Both the position numbers and the translations under genes were made by a program. A stretch of DNA of 32,000 bases. It comes from Patescibacteria group bacterium. GTDB taxonomy: Bacteria; Patescibacteriota; Patescibacteriia; 2-01-FULL-39-33. Where the stretch lies: assembly GCA_041649575.1 (NCBI GenBank), contig JBAZMW010000004.1, forward strand, positions 90,001-122,000. The letters are read 5' to 3'. The notes under the pieces are model-generated. The model saw only the letters and a list, made by a program, of their open reading frames with translations. It was not told where the DNA came from and ran no database searches. Positions 3,833 through 24,412 of this stretch are shown piece after piece (within the stretch, counting starts at the first letter, position 1; the number at the start of each line of letters is the position of its first letter).

Positions 3833-6058
3833 ATGACCAGGCCAAAAATTAAATTAATTTTGTTTTTGTCGATTTTGACGGCCCTAGCGCTGCCAGCAGC
3901 TTTGCCGGCCAGAGCTGCCGGCGATTTGACCACTCTAAAAAACAAGGCGATTCAGGAGTGTTATGCGGCCAAGGTGTCTCTGCAACAATACACAGCCAAT
4001 CTTGGCTCGTCCAGTCTGGTGTATAAAAATTTAGCCAGCGATATCTCGGTGACAGTGGGAAGCAACGCCTTGTTTTTGCCGGCTATAAAAAGCGTTTTAT
4101 TAAACAAAGCCAACAGCGTTTATGCCGATGTTAATAATCTGTGTACGGCCATTAACAGCGCCAGCAATCTGGCGGCGGCTCAAAATGATTATAATAGTTT
4201 TGCGGCCAAAAAATCAGTGGCCTTGACGATTCTAAACAAGGCCAAAGCTTGGGATTCCTTTTATGGCCGCCTTAAGGCCTCGGGAGCCAATTATGCCTAT
4301 CTTAAAACATTAGCCGACGACCCTGATTTCAGGGGCACTTTGCACAATTCTTTATTAAGAGAGGAAAGGGTGGTGGACCAGGCTCTTGGCGTTATGGAAA
4401 CTAATTTGCCAAGGGTTGTCAGTCAGATGCCCGATGTTGCTTTTTATAATAATTTATTTACCTTGAGTTCCAGTGAGGCCAGTCAGGCCATAGGAAATTT
4501 AGATCAAAAAATATCCCAAAGAAACACCTGGCTCAACAGCGTCGACGCTAGCTACAAGAATAGCTATCCTGCCTTGCTCAAGGCCATGGATTTGGCCGCT
4601 CAATACAAAGTGCCTAAGACCGGAGCGGTTTATGAACAGTACAATAAGTTTTATAGCGACTATGTCAAACGCGCCCAGGCCTTGGTTAAGGATTTGAAAG
4701 GAAAGATTGCTAGCGACAAAGCGGCGTTAAATTCCCTGAAGGCGAAGATAGACCCGATTGCGACAATCAAGGCCTTGAAACTTTTGGATCCGTCCGTGGC
4801 CACGACCTTGGTGGACAAAATAGACGCTTTAACCAATACCCTAAACACCATCGACTCCAATCTTAATAATAGTATTAGTTATATTTCGGCCAAGACTTAT
4901 AATGCCAACCGAGACAACTTAAAAATTAGTTCGATTATTATACCAAGCATTAATTACGCCATTAGCTTTAACAAAAACGTTGATAAACTTAATCAGTTAA
5001 CAGCCGTTTATAATCGTTTCAACGCTTCTTATTCGGCTCTGCTGGGCGGTTTGGACTCGGATGACGGGATTGATAATATGAAAGACATCGGCGATTTAAA
5101 CAAAATTAAACAGAATTTTAGCGCTATAAACACCAATTACCTAGTGGCATTAAACGGCGCTGATAAGGTGGCCCTGGAACAGAAAATCAAAAACAATGCC
5201 GGCGCCAGCCCAGACATCAACTCCCTTTTAGCCGCCCATAAAGATTACAGTAAACGATTAACTTACGCCTCCAGCGACGTTTCCAAAAATCGTAGTAATT
5301 GGTGGAAGCTGATAACGCAGGCGGCGATCAACGGACGGATCAAAAATTTTAGCTCCCTGGCCTGGGTTCAAGAAGAAAACAAAGCCAAGGCAACTTTTGA
5401 GAGTTTTGCCAAAAGGCGGGATAGCTATATGGCCCAAGCCAGAAAATTGATCGACAGCCGCAGAGCCACTTTGGAAAAAAATCAATTTATCATTGATGAT
5501 CTGATGTATCTGCCGGATACCGTCAGGACAGCAGTGAATTTTTCCAGCCGCACTCAAGCCCTGATTTCCAATCTGGAAGACTATTATCAAAATAATATAG
5601 CCACGGTTAATAATTATAACGACTTGGTGGCCAATGTGAAAGGCTTAAAGGATTTTAAAATCAGTGAAGTTTTTATTCCTCTAGAGAGTATTTACATCAC
5701 CTTCAACGGCTATTATAAAAAATTGAGCATTTTAAACGCAGTGATGACCGATGACCTAAACGGTTTGACGGTAAGAATCAGTGCTCTGGAAAATAATTCT
5801 AGTCAAAAGCAGCATGACGCCGGCTTGGCTCTTCGCCAAGCTTATGATCAGACTATGATTGGCAGTTTAAGCCCTTTAATTGGCGAGTTTAACACGGCTT
5901 TGACCGTTGATTTGGTGGACGCTCTGGTTGCCAACGACTTGGCTTTAACCAAAAATATGACCTTTAAGAAGAATTTGTTGGCCTCCAATTTATCAATGGC
6001 GGTCAGGAAGGTGAGCGATTTAAATACCGCTGTCAAAAGAGCCGAAGCAATAAAATAA
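3833..6058 (+). CDS. Large secreted protein with internal two-fold repeat, unknown function
   Basis: The 741-aa ORF starts with the signal peptide MTRPKIKLILFLSILTALALPAALPARAAGD. Composition is N/S/A/L/K-rich and helical-looking. Segment ...LKISSIIIPSINYAISFNKNVDKLNQL... is echoed by ...FKISEVFIPLESIYITFNGYYKKLSIL... Confidence 0.7.
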   Translation: MTRPKIKLILFLSILTALALPAALPARAAGDLTTLKNKAIQECYAAKVSLQQYTANLGSSSLVYKNLASDISVTVGSNALFLPAIKSVLLNKANSVYADVNNLCTAINSASNLAAAQNDYNSFAAKKSVALTILNKAKAWDSFYGRLKASGANYAYLKTLADDPDFRGTLHNSLLREERVVDQALGVMETNLPRVVSQMPDVAFYNNLFTLSSSEASQAIGNLDQKISQRNTWLNSVDASYKNSYPALLKAMDLAAQYKVPKTGAVYEQYNKFYSDYVKRAQALVKDLKGKIASDKAALNSLKAKIDPIATIKALKLLDPSVATTLVDKIDALTNTLNTIDSNLNNSISYISAKTYNANRDNLKISSIIIPSINYAISFNKNVDKLNQLTAVYNRFNASYSALLGGLDSDDGIDNMKDIGDLNKIKQNFSAINTNYLVALNGADKVALEQKIKNNAGASPDINSLLAAHKDYSKRLTYASSDVSKNRSNWWKLITQAAINGRIKNFSSLAWVQEENKAKATFESFAKRRDSYMAQARKLIDSRRATLEKNQFIIDDLMYLPDTVRTAVNFSSRTQALISNLEDYYQNNIATVNNYNDLVANVKGLKDFKISEVFIPLESIYITFNGYYKKLSILNAVMTDDLNGLTVRISALENNSSQKQHDAGLALRQAYDQTMIGSLSPLIGEFNTALTVDLVDALVANDLALTKNMTFKKNLLASNLSMAVRKVSDLNTAVKRAEAIK

Positions 6059-17014: not shown

Positions 17015-17100
17015 AAAATCCCCGTCTGCCCGTTTTGGTTCTTAAGGTCAGTTGAAGCGAGGCGAGCAGAGGGGATTTTGTGTTTTTGTTTTTATTTTTT
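17015..17100 (+). terminator. Long-stem terminator
   Basis: AAAATCCCC(G)TCTGC pairs with GCAGAGGGGATTTT over 14 bp, followed by TGTGTTTTTGTTTTTATTTTTTT. It abuts the stop codon of the convergent EndoQ gene. Confidence 0.55.
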
Positions 17101-18344
17101 TAGAGCAACTTTTTTTGAACAGTTTTTACGGCAGCGGTCTTGATGGCTATTTGGCCGTAGATACCGTCGTAGCCGGGAGTGATTTCGACTCGGCCGAGTC
17201 GGACGCTGATAATTCTTTCGGCGATCTCCGGCCGGGCGATTTTTTTTAACTGCTCTTCGGTTAAGTCGATCAGAATTTCGAATTCACAATATTTTTTGAT
17301 CAGATTAAAATATTCGGTTTGGACTTTTTTTGAATTTTTGCCAACCCCGAAGCTGTCGGCGATAATTTCTTGTAACGGTATTAGACTTTTGTAGGGAATA
17401 TTTTTGGGAGAGTCGCTGTTTTTTTGATCGGCCAGCTCGTTAACTCGGTGAAGCACCCCTAAGGTCAGGGGTTTTTTACAAAGAGGACAGAGGTTGTTAT
17501 TTTTTTTGCTTACTGCCGGGCTGGAGAGGTAGCGGCAAGCGGCGTGGCCGTCGAAATGATATTTGCCTTCTTCGGGAAAAAATTCAATAGTGTAGAGGAA
17601 TTTGTTTTTATCTTTCTCTTTGATGAGGCGGCTAATTTCCTGGTAGCTCAATTGGCCGTCAGTTATTTCAAACACATTGGCCTCGCGGCCAAGATTGGCT
17701 GGCGAATGGGCATCGGAATTGGAGAGCAAGGTAATTCTATCCAGGGCCGATAATTGCCAATTCATTTTTGGATCGGAAGACAAGCCGGTTTCAATGGCGT
17801 GGATATAAGGAGTGATTTCTTCGAAGCATTCAGCCAGAGAATCAAAACCAGACTTGGAACCAAAAACAGCAAACCAAGGAGTCCAGGCATGAGCGGGAAC
17901 AACCAAACTCTGTTGGTTGATGTTTAAAATAATTTTAGCCAGCTCTTTGGCCGACAGGCCAATAATCGGCCGGCCGTCGGATTTAATATTAAAGCCCCGT
18001 TTTTCAAAGTCGGCAATAATTTTTTCAACGGTCGTGATATCGGGAACCAAAAGGCAGACATGGATTCTTCTGGTTTTGCCGCCCTGCGAGTAGATACAGC
18101 TGATTTCCGTACCCAAGACAAATCTGACAAGACTGTCGCTGTCTTTTAGACGATAAAGCCCCGGCTCGGCTTCGATCAGTTTGTCTTTTATTTCTTTGAA
18201 CCACTTGGGATGAGTGAAATCTCCGGTGCTGACAATCTTTATGCCCTTATATTGGCACCAAGAGTCAATATTTTCCAAGGTCAAGTCACGCGAGCAACCT
18301 CGGGAATAGGCGGAATGGATATGTAAGTCGGCAATGACGCGCAT
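17100..18344 (-). CDS. Endonuclease Q-like PHP-domain nuclease with a C-terminal Zn finger
   Basis: Matches include N-terminal DLHIHSAYSRGCS, ...PAHAWTPWFAVFG..., LLSNSDAHSPANLGREANVF, GKYHFDGHAACRY...CPLCKKPLTLGVLHRVNELAD and PGYDGIYGQI. These fit my recollection of Pyrococcus/Bacillus EndoQ. Confidence 0.75.
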   Translation of the reverse strand: MRVIADLHIHSAYSRGCSRDLTLENIDSWCQYKGIKIVSTGDFTHPKWFKEIKDKLIEAEPGLYRLKDSDSLVRFVLGTEISCIYSQGGKTRRIHVCLLVPDITTVEKIIADFEKRGFNIKSDGRPIIGLSAKELAKIILNINQQSLVVPAHAWTPWFAVFGSKSGFDSLAECFEEITPYIHAIETGLSSDPKMNWQLSALDRITLLSNSDAHSPANLGREANVFEITDGQLSYQEISRLIKEKDKNKFLYTIEFFPEEGKYHFDGHAACRYLSSPAVSKKNNNLCPLCKKPLTLGVLHRVNELADQKNSDSPKNIPYKSLIPLQEIIADSFGVGKNSKKVQTEYFNLIKKYCEFEILIDLTEEQLKKIARPEIAERIISVRLGRVEITPGYDGIYGQIAIKTAAVKTVQKKLL

Positions 18345-18414
18345 AGGGCTAATAGCTTATTGCTTATGGTTTAATAATGAATGAATTGATTTTAGCATCG
18401 GGAGTTTTTTTTGG

Positions 18415-18810
18415 CAAAAAGAAAGCGCCACATGTTACAAACAGAGGTGACGCGGTTTGGAGAGTGTCAAGAGTATTTAGCCTTATGAGGACTAATCAAG
18501 GGGCGACCCTGGGTTAGTTTCTCACATCTTCAGATGACTAAAGAGCGGTCATCTTACTCGTGAAGCTGCTGCGGGAGCTTTGTCGGGGAGAGGTCCCAAC
18601 TCAATTTGTAACTCCCGTGAAACGGTCGCACTCGTTCCGATTAACAGCCTCCGCGACACCGTTTTTGGTCTATCATGCGCGTATTTCCCAAAAACCGGTT
18701 TGGGCTCTGCCAGCTTCAGAAGAATCGGGCGCTCCTCTCTTGTCCGTGATCCTTCTTATACCATTACGGGGGGCATCGATTTTTCTTTTCTCGTCTCTCG
18801 AAACTCTCCT
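18415..18810 (-). ncRNA. Unclassified structured RNA candidate, about 395 nt
   Basis: The segment is GC-rich and has no ORF longer than 11 codons on this strand. It has its own promoter at 18817-18845 and an intrinsic terminator at 18416-18453. The 5' and 3' ends form a 13/15-bp helix (18795-18809 with 18459-18473), and there are many internal hairpins. Confidence 0.5.
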
Positions 18811-18816
18811 ATCACT

Positions 18817-18845
18817 AGTATAGACTCATTAGGCAGAAAAGTCAA
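18817..18845 (-). promoter_or_regulatory. Promoter: TTGACT, 17-nt spacer, TATACT, for the ncRNA candidate
   Basis: The -35 is at 18840-18845 and the -10 at 18817-18822 on the minus strand. Confidence 0.5.
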
Positions 18846-18955
18846 TGTTATTTTTTTGGCAAAAAAAAGAAGGCGGCTTCACCACAATTGTGATGACTCC
18901 ACCAACTAAGTCGGATCGGCCGACGGACAACTCGGGTTCAGCAGGTCACAGTCGT

Positions 18956-19090
18956 CTACACGACGATACCAGCTCTGCCACCCTGCACCTGGATAACGGT
19001 CAGACCATAGAGGCAGAAGAAATAGAAGCCAGCTTGATCTAGCTGGCAATCCTCTCGGCCGCATTTCTTACACTTACACTTCTGCTCCAT
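18956..19090 (-). CDS. 44-aa Cys-rich mini-protein (MEQKCKCKKCGREDCQLDQAGFYFFCLYGLTVIQVQGGRAGIVV)
   Basis: SD GAAGGAGA ends 7 nt before the ATG. It starts 16 nt after the upstream ORF's stop. It is not in the ORF track because it is shorter than 60 aa. Confidence 0.45.
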   Translation of the reverse strand: MEQKCKCKKCGREDCQLDQAGFYFFCLYGLTVIQVQGGRAGIVV

Positions 19091-19106
19091 ACCCTTTCTC
19101 CTTCAG

Positions 19107-19319
19107 TTAGGCCCGCACATCAAGCAGCCGGCCGGAGTGATTTCCCGTAGAGATCAGTCGTGGCGATCTCGGAGCCGGGCTTCTGTTGATAGACTTCAGG
19201 TAACAAGAATGACACAATAGCCCTCTCCGGTCGAAGATCACCTTGGTTTGTCCGCAGTGACTACAAGGGGCGACTAGCGGCCTTGATTCGGCACATGAAA
19301 TACTGACACGAGAGATCAT
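19107..19319 (-). CDS. 70-aa zinc-ribbon-like mini-protein (CxxC-x13-CxxC)
   Basis: SD AGGAGGG ends 7 nt before the ATG at 19319. The ORF reads MISRVSISCAESRPLVAPCSHCGQTKVIFDRRGLLCHSCYLKSINRSPAPRSPRLISTGNHSGRLLDVRA. The track's longer 101-aa version starts upstream of the SD. Confidence 0.5.
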   Translation of the reverse strand: MISRVSISCAESRPLVAPCSHCGQTKVIFDRRGLLCHSCYLKSINRSPAPRSPRLISTGNHSGRLLDVRA

Positions 19320-19394
19320 GACCCTTCCCTCCTGACGCTCAAAAATGTTCAAGCTAGTATTATAAATAGCACAATTATTTATGGTTGTAAAGAT

Positions 19395-19421
19395 AAATAA
19401 AAATCCCGCCAAAAGGCGGGA
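19395..19421 (-). terminator. rRNA operon terminator
   Basis: TCCCGCC-TTTT-GGCGGGA hairpin followed on the minus strand by TTTTTATTTAT, just downstream of the 5S rRNA. Confidence 0.7.
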
Positions 19422-19439
19422 CTAGTTTTTAAATCCAGG

Positions 19440-19551
19440 GTCCGGGCGCTGACCTACTTTCCCCATTGAAGAGTATCATCGGCTCAGGAGGGCTTAACTA
19501 CTGAGTTCGGGATGGGATCAGGTGTGACCCCTCTGATAGAAGCACCCAGAC
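19440..19551 (-). rRNA. rrf: 5S rRNA
   Basis: Helix I pairs GTCTGGGTGC with GCGCCCGGAC. The conserved core CCCATCCCGAACTCAGTAGTTAAGC is present. Ends are good to about 3 nt. Confidence 0.9.
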
Positions 19552-19602
19552 TCTGGATTCAAAAATTTTTTGATAAGCAATAATCGTAATCACAATTCTT
19601 GC

Positions 19603-22729
<3,127 letters not shown>

Positions 22730-23121: not shown

Positions 23122-24326
23122 TATTGGGGTGGTTTTTTTTGCTCATTTGCCAGGTGTTTTTTAGTAAAATAGCTAAATTTACCCAATTTTATATAATCAT
23201 CTACTTTTTTGTTAATCAATTTGTCTAAAACGTGAAAACGGCGTTTTTTTTCGATAAATGGCACATTGTCGGTGAACTTTTTGGCAGCCATGGTGCCAAT
23301 TCGAGGTGAATAACAAGCGATATAGGCTAGATTAAAACCCACCTTCTTATATAAGTCGACGGTTCGACCAAATTGTTTCACAGTTTCGCCAGGAAAACCC
23401 ACAATAATATCGGTGGTAAAACTAGCATCGGGCACTTGTTTTTTTATTTTTTTTATTAACTTTAAATATTCTTCCCTAGTATAGAGGCGGTTCATCTTTT
23501 TCAAAATGGTATTGTCACCAGCTTGGACCGGCAAATGGATTTCACGGTTGATTTGAGGATGGCTGGCAATCACTTTAATCAGTTGGTCGGAAAAATCCCA
23601 AGGGTTGGCAGAAATAAAGGATATTTTTTTGAATTTTTTTATTTTGGCGATTTCTTCCAGAAGATAGGGAAACAAGGTCGGAATTCTAGTTTTACCTAAA
23701 CTTTTTACTAAGATCGGCTCAACTTTTTTACCATCGGGCAATTTGAATTTTTTGTTTTTAACGACTAAGTCTGCGCCGTAGGAATTTACATTTTGTCCGA
23801 TGAGCGTGATTTCGCTGTAGCCACGTCGTGCCAGATTCTTGGCTTCTTTAATTATATCAATAAAGGATCGGGAAATTTCTCGGCCGCGCGCCAAGGGTAC
23901 AATGCAATAAGAGCAGGCGTTATTACAACCGTTGCCGATAGAAACAAAAGCATGTCTTTTGTCTGATCTGGTTGGCGACAGTGAGAAAAATTTTTCTATC
24001 GGTACGCATTCACAATCAGCGGAGATTTTTTTTAATTTTCCTCTTCTGACGCCCGATGGCTCGCGGCTAGCTGCGCCGACTAAACAACCAGTAATTATTA
24101 TTTTTAACTGGGGATTTTTTTTCTGAAGCTGTTTTAATTTTTTAATTAAGCCATAGGCGCGATTCTCGGCCGCTTCGCGGACAACACAAGTGTTAATAAT
24201 AGCCACAGTAGCTGTGGCTGGGTTGTTGGTTGGTCGGTAGCCGAGTTTTTGGTAGCGGCTGACAATTTTTTCCGAGTCGGCGACATTGCCTTGGCAACCG
24301 AAAGTTTTGAGGTAGAAAGTTTTCAT
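23118..24326 (-). CDS. miaB: Radical-SAM tRNA methylthiotransferase (MiaB-like)
   Basis: The N-terminal MTTase domain is MKTFYLKTFGCQGNVADSE and the radical-SAM cluster is GCNNACSYCIVPLARGRE. I use the ATG at 24326, because the track's longer N-terminus is read through the tRNA-Leu gene. Confidence 0.8.
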   Translation of the reverse strand: MKTFYLKTFGCQGNVADSEKIVSRYQKLGYRPTNNPATATVAIINTCVVREAAENRAYGLIKKLKQLQKKNPQLKIIITGCLVGAASREPSGVRRGKLKKISADCECVPIEKFFSLSPTRSDKRHAFVSIGNGCNNACSYCIVPLARGREISRSFIDIIKEAKNLARRGYSEITLIGQNVNSYGADLVVKNKKFKLPDGKKVEPILVKSLGKTRIPTLFPYLLEEIAKIKKFKKISFISANPWDFSDQLIKVIASHPQINREIHLPVQAGDNTILKKMNRLYTREEYLKLIKKIKKQVPDASFTTDIIVGFPGETVKQFGRTVDLYKKVGFNLAYIACYSPRIGTMAAKKFTDNVPFIEKKRRFHVLDKLINKKVDDYIKLGKFSYFTKKHLANEQKKPPQY

Positions 24327-24412
24327 GGTGCCTTGGGAGGGACTCGAACCCTCAATCCCTTGCGGGAACATGCTCCTAAGGCATGCGCGTATACCAATTC
24401 CGCCACCAAGGC
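24326..24412 (-). tRNA. tRNA-Leu(UAG), CCA encoded
   Basis: Acceptor GCCTTGG/CCAAGGC, anticodon stem CATGC/GCATG with loop CTTAGGA, long variable arm, T-arm GAGGG-TTCGAGT-CCCTC, and 3' end ACCA. The terminal A at 24326 is the A of the miaB-like ATG. Confidence 0.9.

Follow-up and report, generated by a model that had tools for sequence, protein, structure and literature searches.

What is made from the segment between the ribosomal RNA (rRNA) operon and the EndoQ gene in the 32-kb stretch of Patescibacteria DNA analysed here? In this stretch (the window, with position 1 at its first letter), the candidate unit at 18416-18845 on the minus strand, hereafter window-RNA, had been described in a first-pass annotation, made from the letters alone, as a discrete non-coding structured RNA that matches no known family. 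Both points agree with the present analysis: the unit has a predicted promoter, paired ends, a terminator and no credible open reading frame (ORF), and Rfam gives no match to it at gathering score and none at E<=10 on 18300-19450. However, the fold is not the unclassified one that had been supposed, since BLAST, a profile hidden Markov model (HMM), two covariance models and counts of base pairs point to homology with domain I of 23S rRNA. Sequence comparison identifies window-RNA as a strongly diverged, internally deleted paralogue of this 5′ domain. The best explanation, which is on balance probable although far from assured, is that the unit is the gene of a trimmed domain I paralogue whose transcript serves as a protein-binding mimic of nascent domain I.

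Kinship with domain I of 23S rRNA

A first hint was the word TAAGGCTAAATACT(C/T)TTGA, common to window-RNA and the 23S gene of the same window. BLAST against that gene gave three colinear matches, joining RNA nucleotides (nt) 26-36 to 23S 218-228 (11/11), 110-119 to 369-378 (10/10) and 331-349 to 655-673 (18/19, E 0.009). The pattern AGTTACAAA..AGTA..RTAAGGCTAA, taken from the RNA family and scanned over one genome per GTDB species in search of further members, matched mostly genuine 23S genes of many phyla, at the domain I position. Moreover, a profile HMM of 71 true 23S domain I segments from other bacteria, searched against the window and nine loci, matched true 23S genes and otherwise only window-RNA and the three homologues described below, colinearly and on the right strand, with E values of 5e-5, 0.003, 0.015 and 0.067.

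Covariance models built from true 23S rRNA lead to the same four RNAs. Model R1, made from 33 true 23S sequences of other bacteria, covers AGUA-H21-GAAnnn-H22-AAGGCUAAAUAC, the helices H5-H22 being named here in the standard 23S numbering. In 144 kb its best matches were five true 23S genes (79-85 bits), followed by the four RNAs and nothing else, namely window-RNA at 28.0 bits (E 3.5e-5) and those of the loci L001, L003 and L010 at 23.7, 16.7 and 13.9 bits, respectively. In 514 kb of other Patescibacteria loci it returned one true 23S and one weak chance match, which lies inside a protein-coding gene in L171 and was discarded, and in 627 kb with 86 true 23S genes all matches scored 72-103 bits, with none in between. 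Model R2, made from 25 true 23S sequences, covers GGAGGAAAAGAAA-H12-GAUUCC-H13-AGCCYAAACC, ending on the 5′ strand of H14. It aligns with window-RNA from end to end at 27.8 bits (E 7e-4), allowing for 45 inserted nt in H13, and gives weak scores at the right place in the three homologues, which are longer and have >100 nt inserted in H13. The R2 match (18802-18689) and the R1 match (18569-18467) are colinear and together span window-RNA.

The core of window-RNA measures ~350 nt (18459-18809) and has paired ends. Retained from 23S, and in the same order, are P1 (the closing helix) and the GAGGAAAAGAAA junction, then a minimal H12 followed by the H13 base and the AGCC/GGCU pair of H14, and next a hairpin where 23S has H16, a reduced H18 arm with UUACAAA and the array AGUA-H21-GAAnnn-H22-AAGGCUAAAUA. 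The pairings were taken from the consensus line of the Rfam large-subunit (LSU) model and from the models built here, and the parts are as follows.

18795-18809, minus strand: 5′ strand of P1, GGAGAGUUUCGAGAG, paired with 18459-18473 in the minimum free energy (MFE) and centroid folds, then ACGA
18780-18792, minus strand: junction GAGAAAAGAAAAA, equal to the 23S junction GGAGGAAAAGAAA, with an exact 11-nt match to the window's own 23S and aligned by R2
18778-18779, minus strand: UC, which with the last GA of GAGAAAAGAAAAA makes the minimal H12 hairpin (2-3 bp)
18772-18775, minus strand: 5′ strand of the H13 base, UGCC, paired with GGCA at 18708-18711
18718-18756, minus strand: lineage-specific hairpin in H13, AGAAGGAUC (18748-18756) with GAUUCUUCU (18718-18726), counted by R2 as the 45-nt insertion
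18699-18711, minus strand: 3′ GGCA of H13 (18708-18711), linker G (18707), 5′ AGCC of H14 (18703-18706) and CAAA (18699-18702)
18478-18481, minus strand: GGCU, the long-range partner of AGCC in H14, which is the [[[[ ]]]] helix of the Rfam LSU consensus
18659-18698, minus strand: hairpin at the H16 position, CCGGUUUUUGG with CCAAAAACGG
18572-18617, minus strand: reduced H18-like arm with CGGGAG, UUACAAA, the inner hairpin GUUGGG/CCCGAC and CUCCCG
18526-18558, minus strand: AGUA, H21 (AGAUGAC/GUCAUCU) and the 6-nt junction GAAGAU, placed by R1 (28.0 bits), segment fold and pair counts
18474-18525, minus strand: H22 (GUGAG/CUCAU) and then AAGGCUAAAUA, placed by the 18/19 match to the own 23S and by R1
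18459-18473, minus strand: 3′ strand of P1, CUCUUGACACUCUCC, where the own 23S has CUUUUGAUGAUC

P1, whose strands GGAGAGUUUCGAGAG and CUCUUGACACUCUCC the first-pass annotation had already seen to pair, corresponds to the 23S helix whose 3′ strand comes after AAGGCUAAAUAC. ACGA follows its 5′ strand in both molecules (AUCAAAAG-ACGAUGAAGG in true 23S, UUCGAGAG-ACGAGAAAAG in the RNA) and, since the RNA goes straight from ACGA to the GAGGAAAAGAAA junction, the equivalent of H5-H11 is deleted. The junction GAGAAAAGAAA is retained from 23S and is followed by the small hairpin of H12, while H22 carries a 31-nt inserted arm, of which R1 treats 29 nt as insertion. Separate folds of the 3′ segment give the geometry AGUA-hairpin-GAAnnn-hairpin-AAGGCUAA(A/G) in all four RNAs and in the window's 23S, and the E. 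coli 23S sequence presumably folds to the same AGUA-hairpin-GAAnnn-hairpin-AAGGCUAA geometry.

Set beside bacterial 23S domain I (RF02541, model positions ~36-46 and ~215-482), the RNA has the same order of motifs (GAGGAAAAGAAA, GAUUCCC, GGAACAGCC(Y)AAACC, UUACAAA, AGUA, GAAnnn and AAGGCUAAAUA) and the same closing helix, H12, H13 base, H14, H21 and H22. As for the differences, the RNAs are 360-580 nt long, not 2.9 kb, they lack H5-H11 and everything 3′ of the closing helix (domains II-VI), they bear lineage-specific insertions in H13 and H22, their scores are 14-28 bits, against 72-103 bits for true 23S under the same models, and they evolve ~10 times faster. The Rfam LSU model (RF02541) does not detect window-RNA, which fails both its gathering score and its six-domain coverage, and the RNAs of L001 and L010 have no Rfam match either, LSU included. 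Window-RNA is a homologue of part of the 23S family and not a ribosomal 23S. The true 23S gene of the window is complete (Rfam positions 1-2925), with its own GGAGGAAAAGAAA...AAGGCUAAAUAC region and all helices; therefore, window-RNA is an extra copy, and the idea that it could be the missing piece of a fragmented 23S is ruled out.

The H14 pair differs among these genomes. The true 23S genes of L001 (~1560, ~1860), L003 (~2355, ~2653) and L010 (~1750, ~2050) have AGUC/GACU, whereas the RNAs of the same three loci keep AGCC/GGCU and the window has AGCC/GGCU in both its 23S and its RNA. This difference within the same genomes shows that the RNA was not copied recently from the host 23S. The 23S of L005, an RNA-less sister of L010, has AGCC/GGCU, and that of L194, at whose locus no RNA was detected, has at least the AGUC 5′ strand. 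A link between the presence of the RNA and the AGUC/GACU variant seems weak, and the window is an exception to it.

Homologues and pattern of conservation

The relatives compared are contigs that encode EndoQ homologues, with four RNA-bearing lineages and nine EndoQ proteins at RNA-less loci. The neighbouring EndoQ protein places the window in Patescibacteria, and the named relatives are Candidatus Buchananbacteria. In these related Patescibacteria, three homologues (360-580 nt) lie each between an rRNA operon and EndoQ.

L001, 4573-5147: RNA, identical in L002, an independent assembly
L003, 5363-5891: RNA
L010, ~5451-5850: RNA, on the same contig as L057

The four RNAs share, in order, a terminal helix, GA(G/A)(G/A)AAAGA, UCGAYNCCC, GG(A/C)A(C/G)AGCC(Y)AAACC, G(G/A)AGUUACAAA, AGUA, UAAGGCUAA, the other strand of the terminal helix and a terminator. 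Single-sequence nhmmer finds no match between window-RNA and the other members and, thus, the kinship of the four is visible only through motifs, profiles and structure. A whole-RNA MAFFT alignment of the four members, with their arms of very unequal length, was unusable and was replaced by motif-anchored segments and model-based alignment. As far as this locus is concerned, the RNA is absent from L004, L005/L006, L007-L009, L210-L214, L215, L216 and L217, and these RNA-less loci include sisters of RNA-bearing genomes, the 23S genes of L005 and L010 being 94.6% identical. Neither nhmmer nor R1 found the RNA in any of the metagenome EndoQ relatives (<=62% identity). The contig that holds L010 and L057, CAZHYS010000010.1, is titled 'uncultured Gammaproteobacteria bacterium'; by its EndoQ, its 23S and the order of its genes it belongs with the Patescibacteria relatives of the window, and the title is probably a taxonomic mislabel.

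The strongest competitor of a functional paralogue is a relic, that is, a partial 23S duplicate or rRNA pseudogene, left without function downstream of the rRNA operon. That the RNA is clearly derived from 23S and adjoins the rRNA operon, that it changes far faster than rRNA, with many indels, and that several close relatives do without it would all suit such a relic, whereas the way in which the RNA changes would not, which leaves this explanation unlikely although not negligible. Between L001 and L003, the 23S genes are 98.3% identical, the 5S genes 100%, EndoQ 81% at the DNA level and 60% at third codon positions; the RNAs are 77.8% identical in aligned columns, with 124 gap columns. Perfect identity is nevertheless confined to particular stretches between indel-rich arms (the last ~60 nt, GGGAACAGCCUAAACC and GUGCUGGRAAGUUACAAA), and the single-stranded junction motifs are invariant, against the 60% third-position identity of the neighbouring gene.

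The helices are kept in the same selective manner. In an alignment of the four true 23S and the four RNAs, 93/93 scored cells of H21 and H22 are standard pairs, with double-sided changes in 11 of the 13 pairs, a number that 0/500 column shuffles reach, and pairing falls to 31-48% when the partner is slid by 1-3 columns. P1 is retained even though it is made of unrelated sequences in each lineage, and a hand-curated table shows its inner helix to be compensatory (GAGAG/CUCUU, GGGGC/GCUCC and CUUCU/AGAAG). Compensatory changes also occur in the second pair of H13 (UGCC/GGCA in the window, UCCC/GGGA in the homologues), in H18, where a G-C becomes A-U (GGGAG/CUCCC in the window, GGAAG/CUUCC in the homologues), and in H22 (GUGAG/CUCAU and GCGCG/CGCGU). 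In addition, a good promoter and a terminator lie exactly at the ends of the unit in two lineages, and the RNA persists across lineages whose 23S differs by 14%, in genomes of roughly 1 Mb. The decaying helices, uniform neutral change and missing transcription signals expected of a pseudogene were not found, a result that, from a sample of four members, is not final. Among these four, the pattern of substitutions is that of a structured RNA under constraint, with peripheral arms free to vary, and not that of neutral decay.

Several points weigh against a functional domain I paralogue. There are only four independent members, all from one Patescibacteria clade, and L003 and L010, judged by the true-23S models alone, score weakly (E 0.08-0.6), so that they are counted as members on account of position, colinearity and shared motifs. 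The alignment of four 23S and four RNAs was fitted to the model structure, and the pair counts lean towards it. Moreover, since sister genomes lack the RNA at this locus, it can be dispensed with or is mobile, as one would hardly expect of a core role in ribosome biogenesis.

The transcription unit and its surroundings

Around window-RNA, the locus is arranged as follows, with promoters and terminators being consensus matches read from the sequence.

19602-22728, minus strand: 23S rRNA gene (Rfam, 2567.7 bits, model positions 1-2925)
19441-19549, minus strand: 5S rRNA gene
19402-19423, minus strand: terminator 3′ of 5S
between the terminators 19402-19423 and 18873-18885, minus strand: unit of two mini-ORFs
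18873-18885, minus strand: terminator of the mini-ORF unit
18817-18845, minus strand: window-RNA promoter of the sigma-70 type, TTGACT-17-TATACT, at 10/12 consensus positions
18416-18453, minus strand: intrinsic terminator with a 7-bp stem and a 15-nt loop holding a small inner hairpin, then UUUCUUUUU
18389-18417, minus strand: EndoQ promoter, TTGCCA-17-TAAAAT with an upstream TG, outside the RNA and marking the downstream boundary of the unit
17100-18344, minus strand: EndoQ gene, downstream of window-RNA and with its own promoter

Both the promoter and the terminator had been picked out in the first-pass annotation and stand as predicted signals. The position of the promoter suggests a transcription start at ~18810-18812, and the terminator stem, which pairs GCGUCAC (18447-18453) with GUGGCGC (18425-18431) ahead of the tail UUUCUUUUU (18416-18424), is present in the MFE fold as well, although a simple terminator scan misses it, the scan being limited to loops of 8 nt. 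All three homologues have a hairpin and a U-tract at the same position. At L010, a promoter match (TTGACA-17-TAGAAT, 11/12 consensus) occupies the same place as in the window, so that in these two lineages a promoter match lies directly upstream of the RNA and a terminator directly downstream. At L001 and L003, the RNA begins ~40 nt past 5S, no promoter-like or terminator-like site was found between 5S and the RNA, and a terminator-like hairpin with a U-tract comes after it; here, the RNA probably closes the rRNA operon as its last gene, co-transcribed with 23S and 5S.

The slot between the 5S terminator and the EndoQ promoter (18389-19440 in the window) varies across genomes. It is empty in L005, L210 and L217 and holds the RNA alone in L003; in L001 it holds the RNA, mini-ORF1 and a GC-rich ORF of ~104 amino acids, in the window mini-ORF1 and mini-ORF2 and then the RNA, in L010 an ORF of 131 amino acids and then the RNA, and in L216 ORFs of 123 and 69 amino acids. 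The units in the slots of the window and L010 each have their own promoter-like and terminator-like sites. The EndoQ promoter TTGCCA-17-TAAAAT is conserved in the window, L001 and L003. The near-identical terminator tails pointed out earlier, CTTTCTTTTTGCCAAAAAAA and CTTCTTTTTTTTGCCAAAAAAA, are both present in the window, and the junction of U-tract and TTGCCAAAAAAA occurs twice on the minus strand, at 18405-18424 and 18854-18875, one copy on each side of the RNA unit. These tails had been taken as a sign of one module, but they have a simpler explanation, because the TTGCCA that they contain serves the conserved EndoQ promoter as its -35 box, and the upstream copy of the junction looks like a duplicate left by local insertion or rearrangement of an RNA cassette.

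The mini-ORFs also speak against such a module, in which the RNA had been thought to form one unit with them: mini-ORF1 is found at only two of the four RNA-bearing loci, the window and L001, and since L003 has no mini-ORF and L010 has an unrelated ORF of 131 amino acids, the association is not obligate. Mini-ORF1 (19107-19322, minus strand, in the window and 5305-5517, plus strand, in L001) encodes ~70 amino acids with four Cys (CxxC...CxxC) and the motif HSGRxLDVxA at the C terminus. It is conserved between the window and the distant lineage L001 together with a promoter, a Shine-Dalgarno sequence and a start codon, and differences in the C-terminal stretch, compared by eye, are mostly synonymous; it probably encodes a genuine small protein that has gone unannotated. 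The gene table of L001 has no entry at this place, and a word-based search for homologues of mini-ORF1 found none. The gene of 138 amino acids that the source annotation places at 5573-5989 in L001 spans the terminator and the EndoQ promoter and is, therefore, doubtful, the GC-rich ORF of ~104 amino acids from 5543, at the place of mini-ORF2, being the more plausible gene.

A variable slot raises the question of whether the RNA could be part of an accessory or mobile cassette, acting as an rRNA decoy against a toxin, a nuclease or a phage or host factor that recognises domain I and not as a regulator of the cell's own ribosome assembly. The patchy distribution among close relatives, the different small units held by the slot between 5S and EndoQ (RNA, mini-ORF1/2, the ORF of 131 or 123 amino acids and that of 69) and the duplicated junctions of terminator and -35 box that flank the window unit are in keeping with this idea, which is nonetheless distinctly improbable: mobility genes were not found, the terminator tails are the only repeats seen, the RNA has no match among viral contigs or in phage and plasmid records, and we know of no toxin that targets this part of domain I. 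The order of the parts, with 5S followed by the RNA in L001 and L003 and the ORF unit followed by the RNA in the window, looks like local rearrangement rather than transfer.

Still less probable is a stoichiometric extra ribosomal component, a 'fourth rRNA' that would join the ribosome or pre-ribosome in trans. Placed ~40 nt past 5S without promoter or terminator, the RNAs of L001 and L003 would indeed be made 1:1 with rRNA, the GC content equals that of rRNA and P1 resembles an rRNA processing stem, but the true 23S has a complete domain I that leaves no vacant site, the rate of change is unlike that of rRNA (78% against 98% identity) and sister lineages do without the RNA. Separately encoded LSU pieces of fragmented rRNA include the chloroplast 4.5S, the 7S and 3S of the Chlamydomonas chloroplast and the scrambled rRNA genes of mitochondria, and the RNA resembles them in being a small gene with LSU sequence, located in L001 and L003 inside the rRNA operon after 5S. 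However, in fragmented rRNAs the main gene lacks the segment in question, whereas here the 23S is complete and the RNA is far more divergent, without the slow evolution of fragmented rRNAs (77.8% against 98.3% for 23S between L001 and L003).

The rRNA genes of the locus show some features of their own. No 16S gene occurs within the window, although 23S and 5S are present and, therefore, the rRNA genes are unlinked or 16S lies >9 kb upstream; upstream of 23S there are a tRNA-Leu gene (24326-24412, minus strand) and an ORF of 417 amino acids. The window 23S is 3127 nt long and, compared with the bacterial consensus of Rfam, its domain I has insertions of ~105 nt at H12 and of 63 and 24 nt elsewhere; at the H12 site, the insertion measures 51-57 nt in the 23S genes of L001, L003, L005 and L010. 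The 23S of L004 contains a group I intron (1623-1818; Rfam, 51.5 bits), and that of L210 an insertion of ~300 nt (~720-1030) with an ORF of 64 amino acids.

The composition of window-RNA agrees with the earlier remark that it is as GC-rich as rRNA, with a GC content of 0.497 against 0.495 for 23S, 0.450 for EndoQ and 0.439 for the whole window. Its MFE is -125.5 kcal/mol, with z scores against dinucleotide shuffles of -2.98 (minus strand) and -1.58 (plus strand), and this stability alone is modest evidence. The claim that no ORF exceeds 11 codons is right for ATG starts, but not when GTG and TTG starts are admitted, which give 36, 29 and 25 amino acids on the sense strand; on the opposite (plus) strand, such starts open ORFs of 87 and 109 amino acids. 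Neither of the latter has a Pfam match, and no reading frame is common to window-RNA and its homologues. Rfam gives no match to OLE, ROOL, GOLLD, HEARO, raiA, tmRNA, 6S or signal recognition particle RNA, and ARAGORN finds no tmRNA.

A divergent RNase P had also been suggested earlier. The P4 helix of RNase P is formed by CR-I (GAGGAAAGUCC) and CR-V (ACAGAA..GGCUUA), to which GAGAAAAG and AAGGCUAA in window-RNA bear a superficial likeness, but these words are the 23S junction motifs GGAGGAAAAGAAA and AAGGCUAAAUAC. The RNase P models (RF00010/RF00011) give no match at E<=10, and no P4 helix forms between the look-alikes, GAGAAAAGA and AAGGCUAA being not complementary and both aligning to 23S junction motifs. 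Thus, despite the lack of an Rfam match, the CR-like words and the plus-strand ORFs, an unrelated novel non-coding RNA, a very divergent RNase P or a protein gene on the opposite strand can hardly be entertained, since the same words, order and helices belong to 23S domain I, the words make no P4 helix and the ORFs have neither a Pfam match nor a frame shared by the homologues.

A possible role beside the nascent ribosome

If the unit is, as favoured above, a trimmed domain I paralogue under selection, its product would fold like the nascent 5′ domain of 23S and bind one or more of its ligands, since the junction core of domain I is exactly what is conserved. Proteins that bind domain I are candidates: uL24 and uL4 bind the H18-H20 region, and bL28 and bL34 contact the side of H11-H13 and H21-H22. 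Candidate ligands could thus be the large-subunit proteins of early assembly (uL24, uL4 and others that contact the region) or an assembly factor, and the RNA might act as a decoy, a buffer or an assembly-related ribonucleoprotein (RNP), coupled to rRNA synthesis. Granted that the RNA is functional, a role as decoy, buffer or assembly RNA is a tentative proposal, with somewhat less than an even chance. Bolder, and rather unlikely as a whole, is the proposal of a free-standing 'mini-domain-I' RNP. In this reading, an rRNA-derived paralogue under selection, transcribed in some lineages as the final gene of the rRNA operon, would form a previously undescribed class of bacterial RNA and, by capturing proteins of early large-subunit assembly or an assembly factor, would adjust or chaperone the making of ribosomes in the ultra-small Patescibacteria. 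For the first assembly step, uL3, uL4, uL13, bL20, uL22 and uL24 are essential (PMC10931766).

The closest functional parallel may be found in the rRNA-mimicking leaders of ribosomal-protein operons (such as those of uL1, uL10, bL20, uS8 and uL4), which, as window-RNA might, present an rRNA-like binding surface outside the ribosome. That such surfaces can compete is illustrated by a 23S fragment with the uL4 site, which outcompetes the binding of uL4 to its mRNA leader (PMC10931766). However, the leaders are short cis-acting 5′ untranslated regions that usually mimic one helix or junction, whereas window-RNA is a free-standing transcript with a terminator, and as a paralogue it comprises the several helices of a whole subdomain. 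At none of the four loci does the RNA adjoin a ribosomal-protein gene, and in the window the next gene, EndoQ, has its own promoter. The idea of imitating a nucleic acid bound by a cellular machine is shared with other non-coding RNAs, as 6S RNA mimics an open promoter and tmRNA and bacterial Y RNA mimic tRNA; the imitated object is a different one here, and there is no sequence or structural kinship and no Rfam match to these RNAs.

In the literature searched, including a paper on ribosome features of the candidate phyla radiation (CPR), as Patescibacteria were formerly called (PMC9297842), no such RNA is described, and it may well represent a new RNA class, should its function be demonstrated. 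For annotation, the locus is a warning that GC-rich 'intergenic' units beside rRNA operons can be rRNA paralogues, and that paralogues of this sort are missed by the full-length models of Rfam and by single-sequence nhmmer. If window-RNA is functional, a whole rRNA folding domain would have been duplicated, trimmed and re-used as an independent RNA gene, a route to structured non-coding RNAs that, as far as the literature searched and Rfam go, is undescribed in bacteria, and rRNA mimicry would take place at the scale of a whole folding domain and not of a single helix. The RNA would then be a natural minimal construct of the 5′ domain junction of 23S, where folding and protein binding of the large subunit begin, and could provide a handle on the control of large-subunit assembly in Patescibacteria, with their reduced ribosomes.

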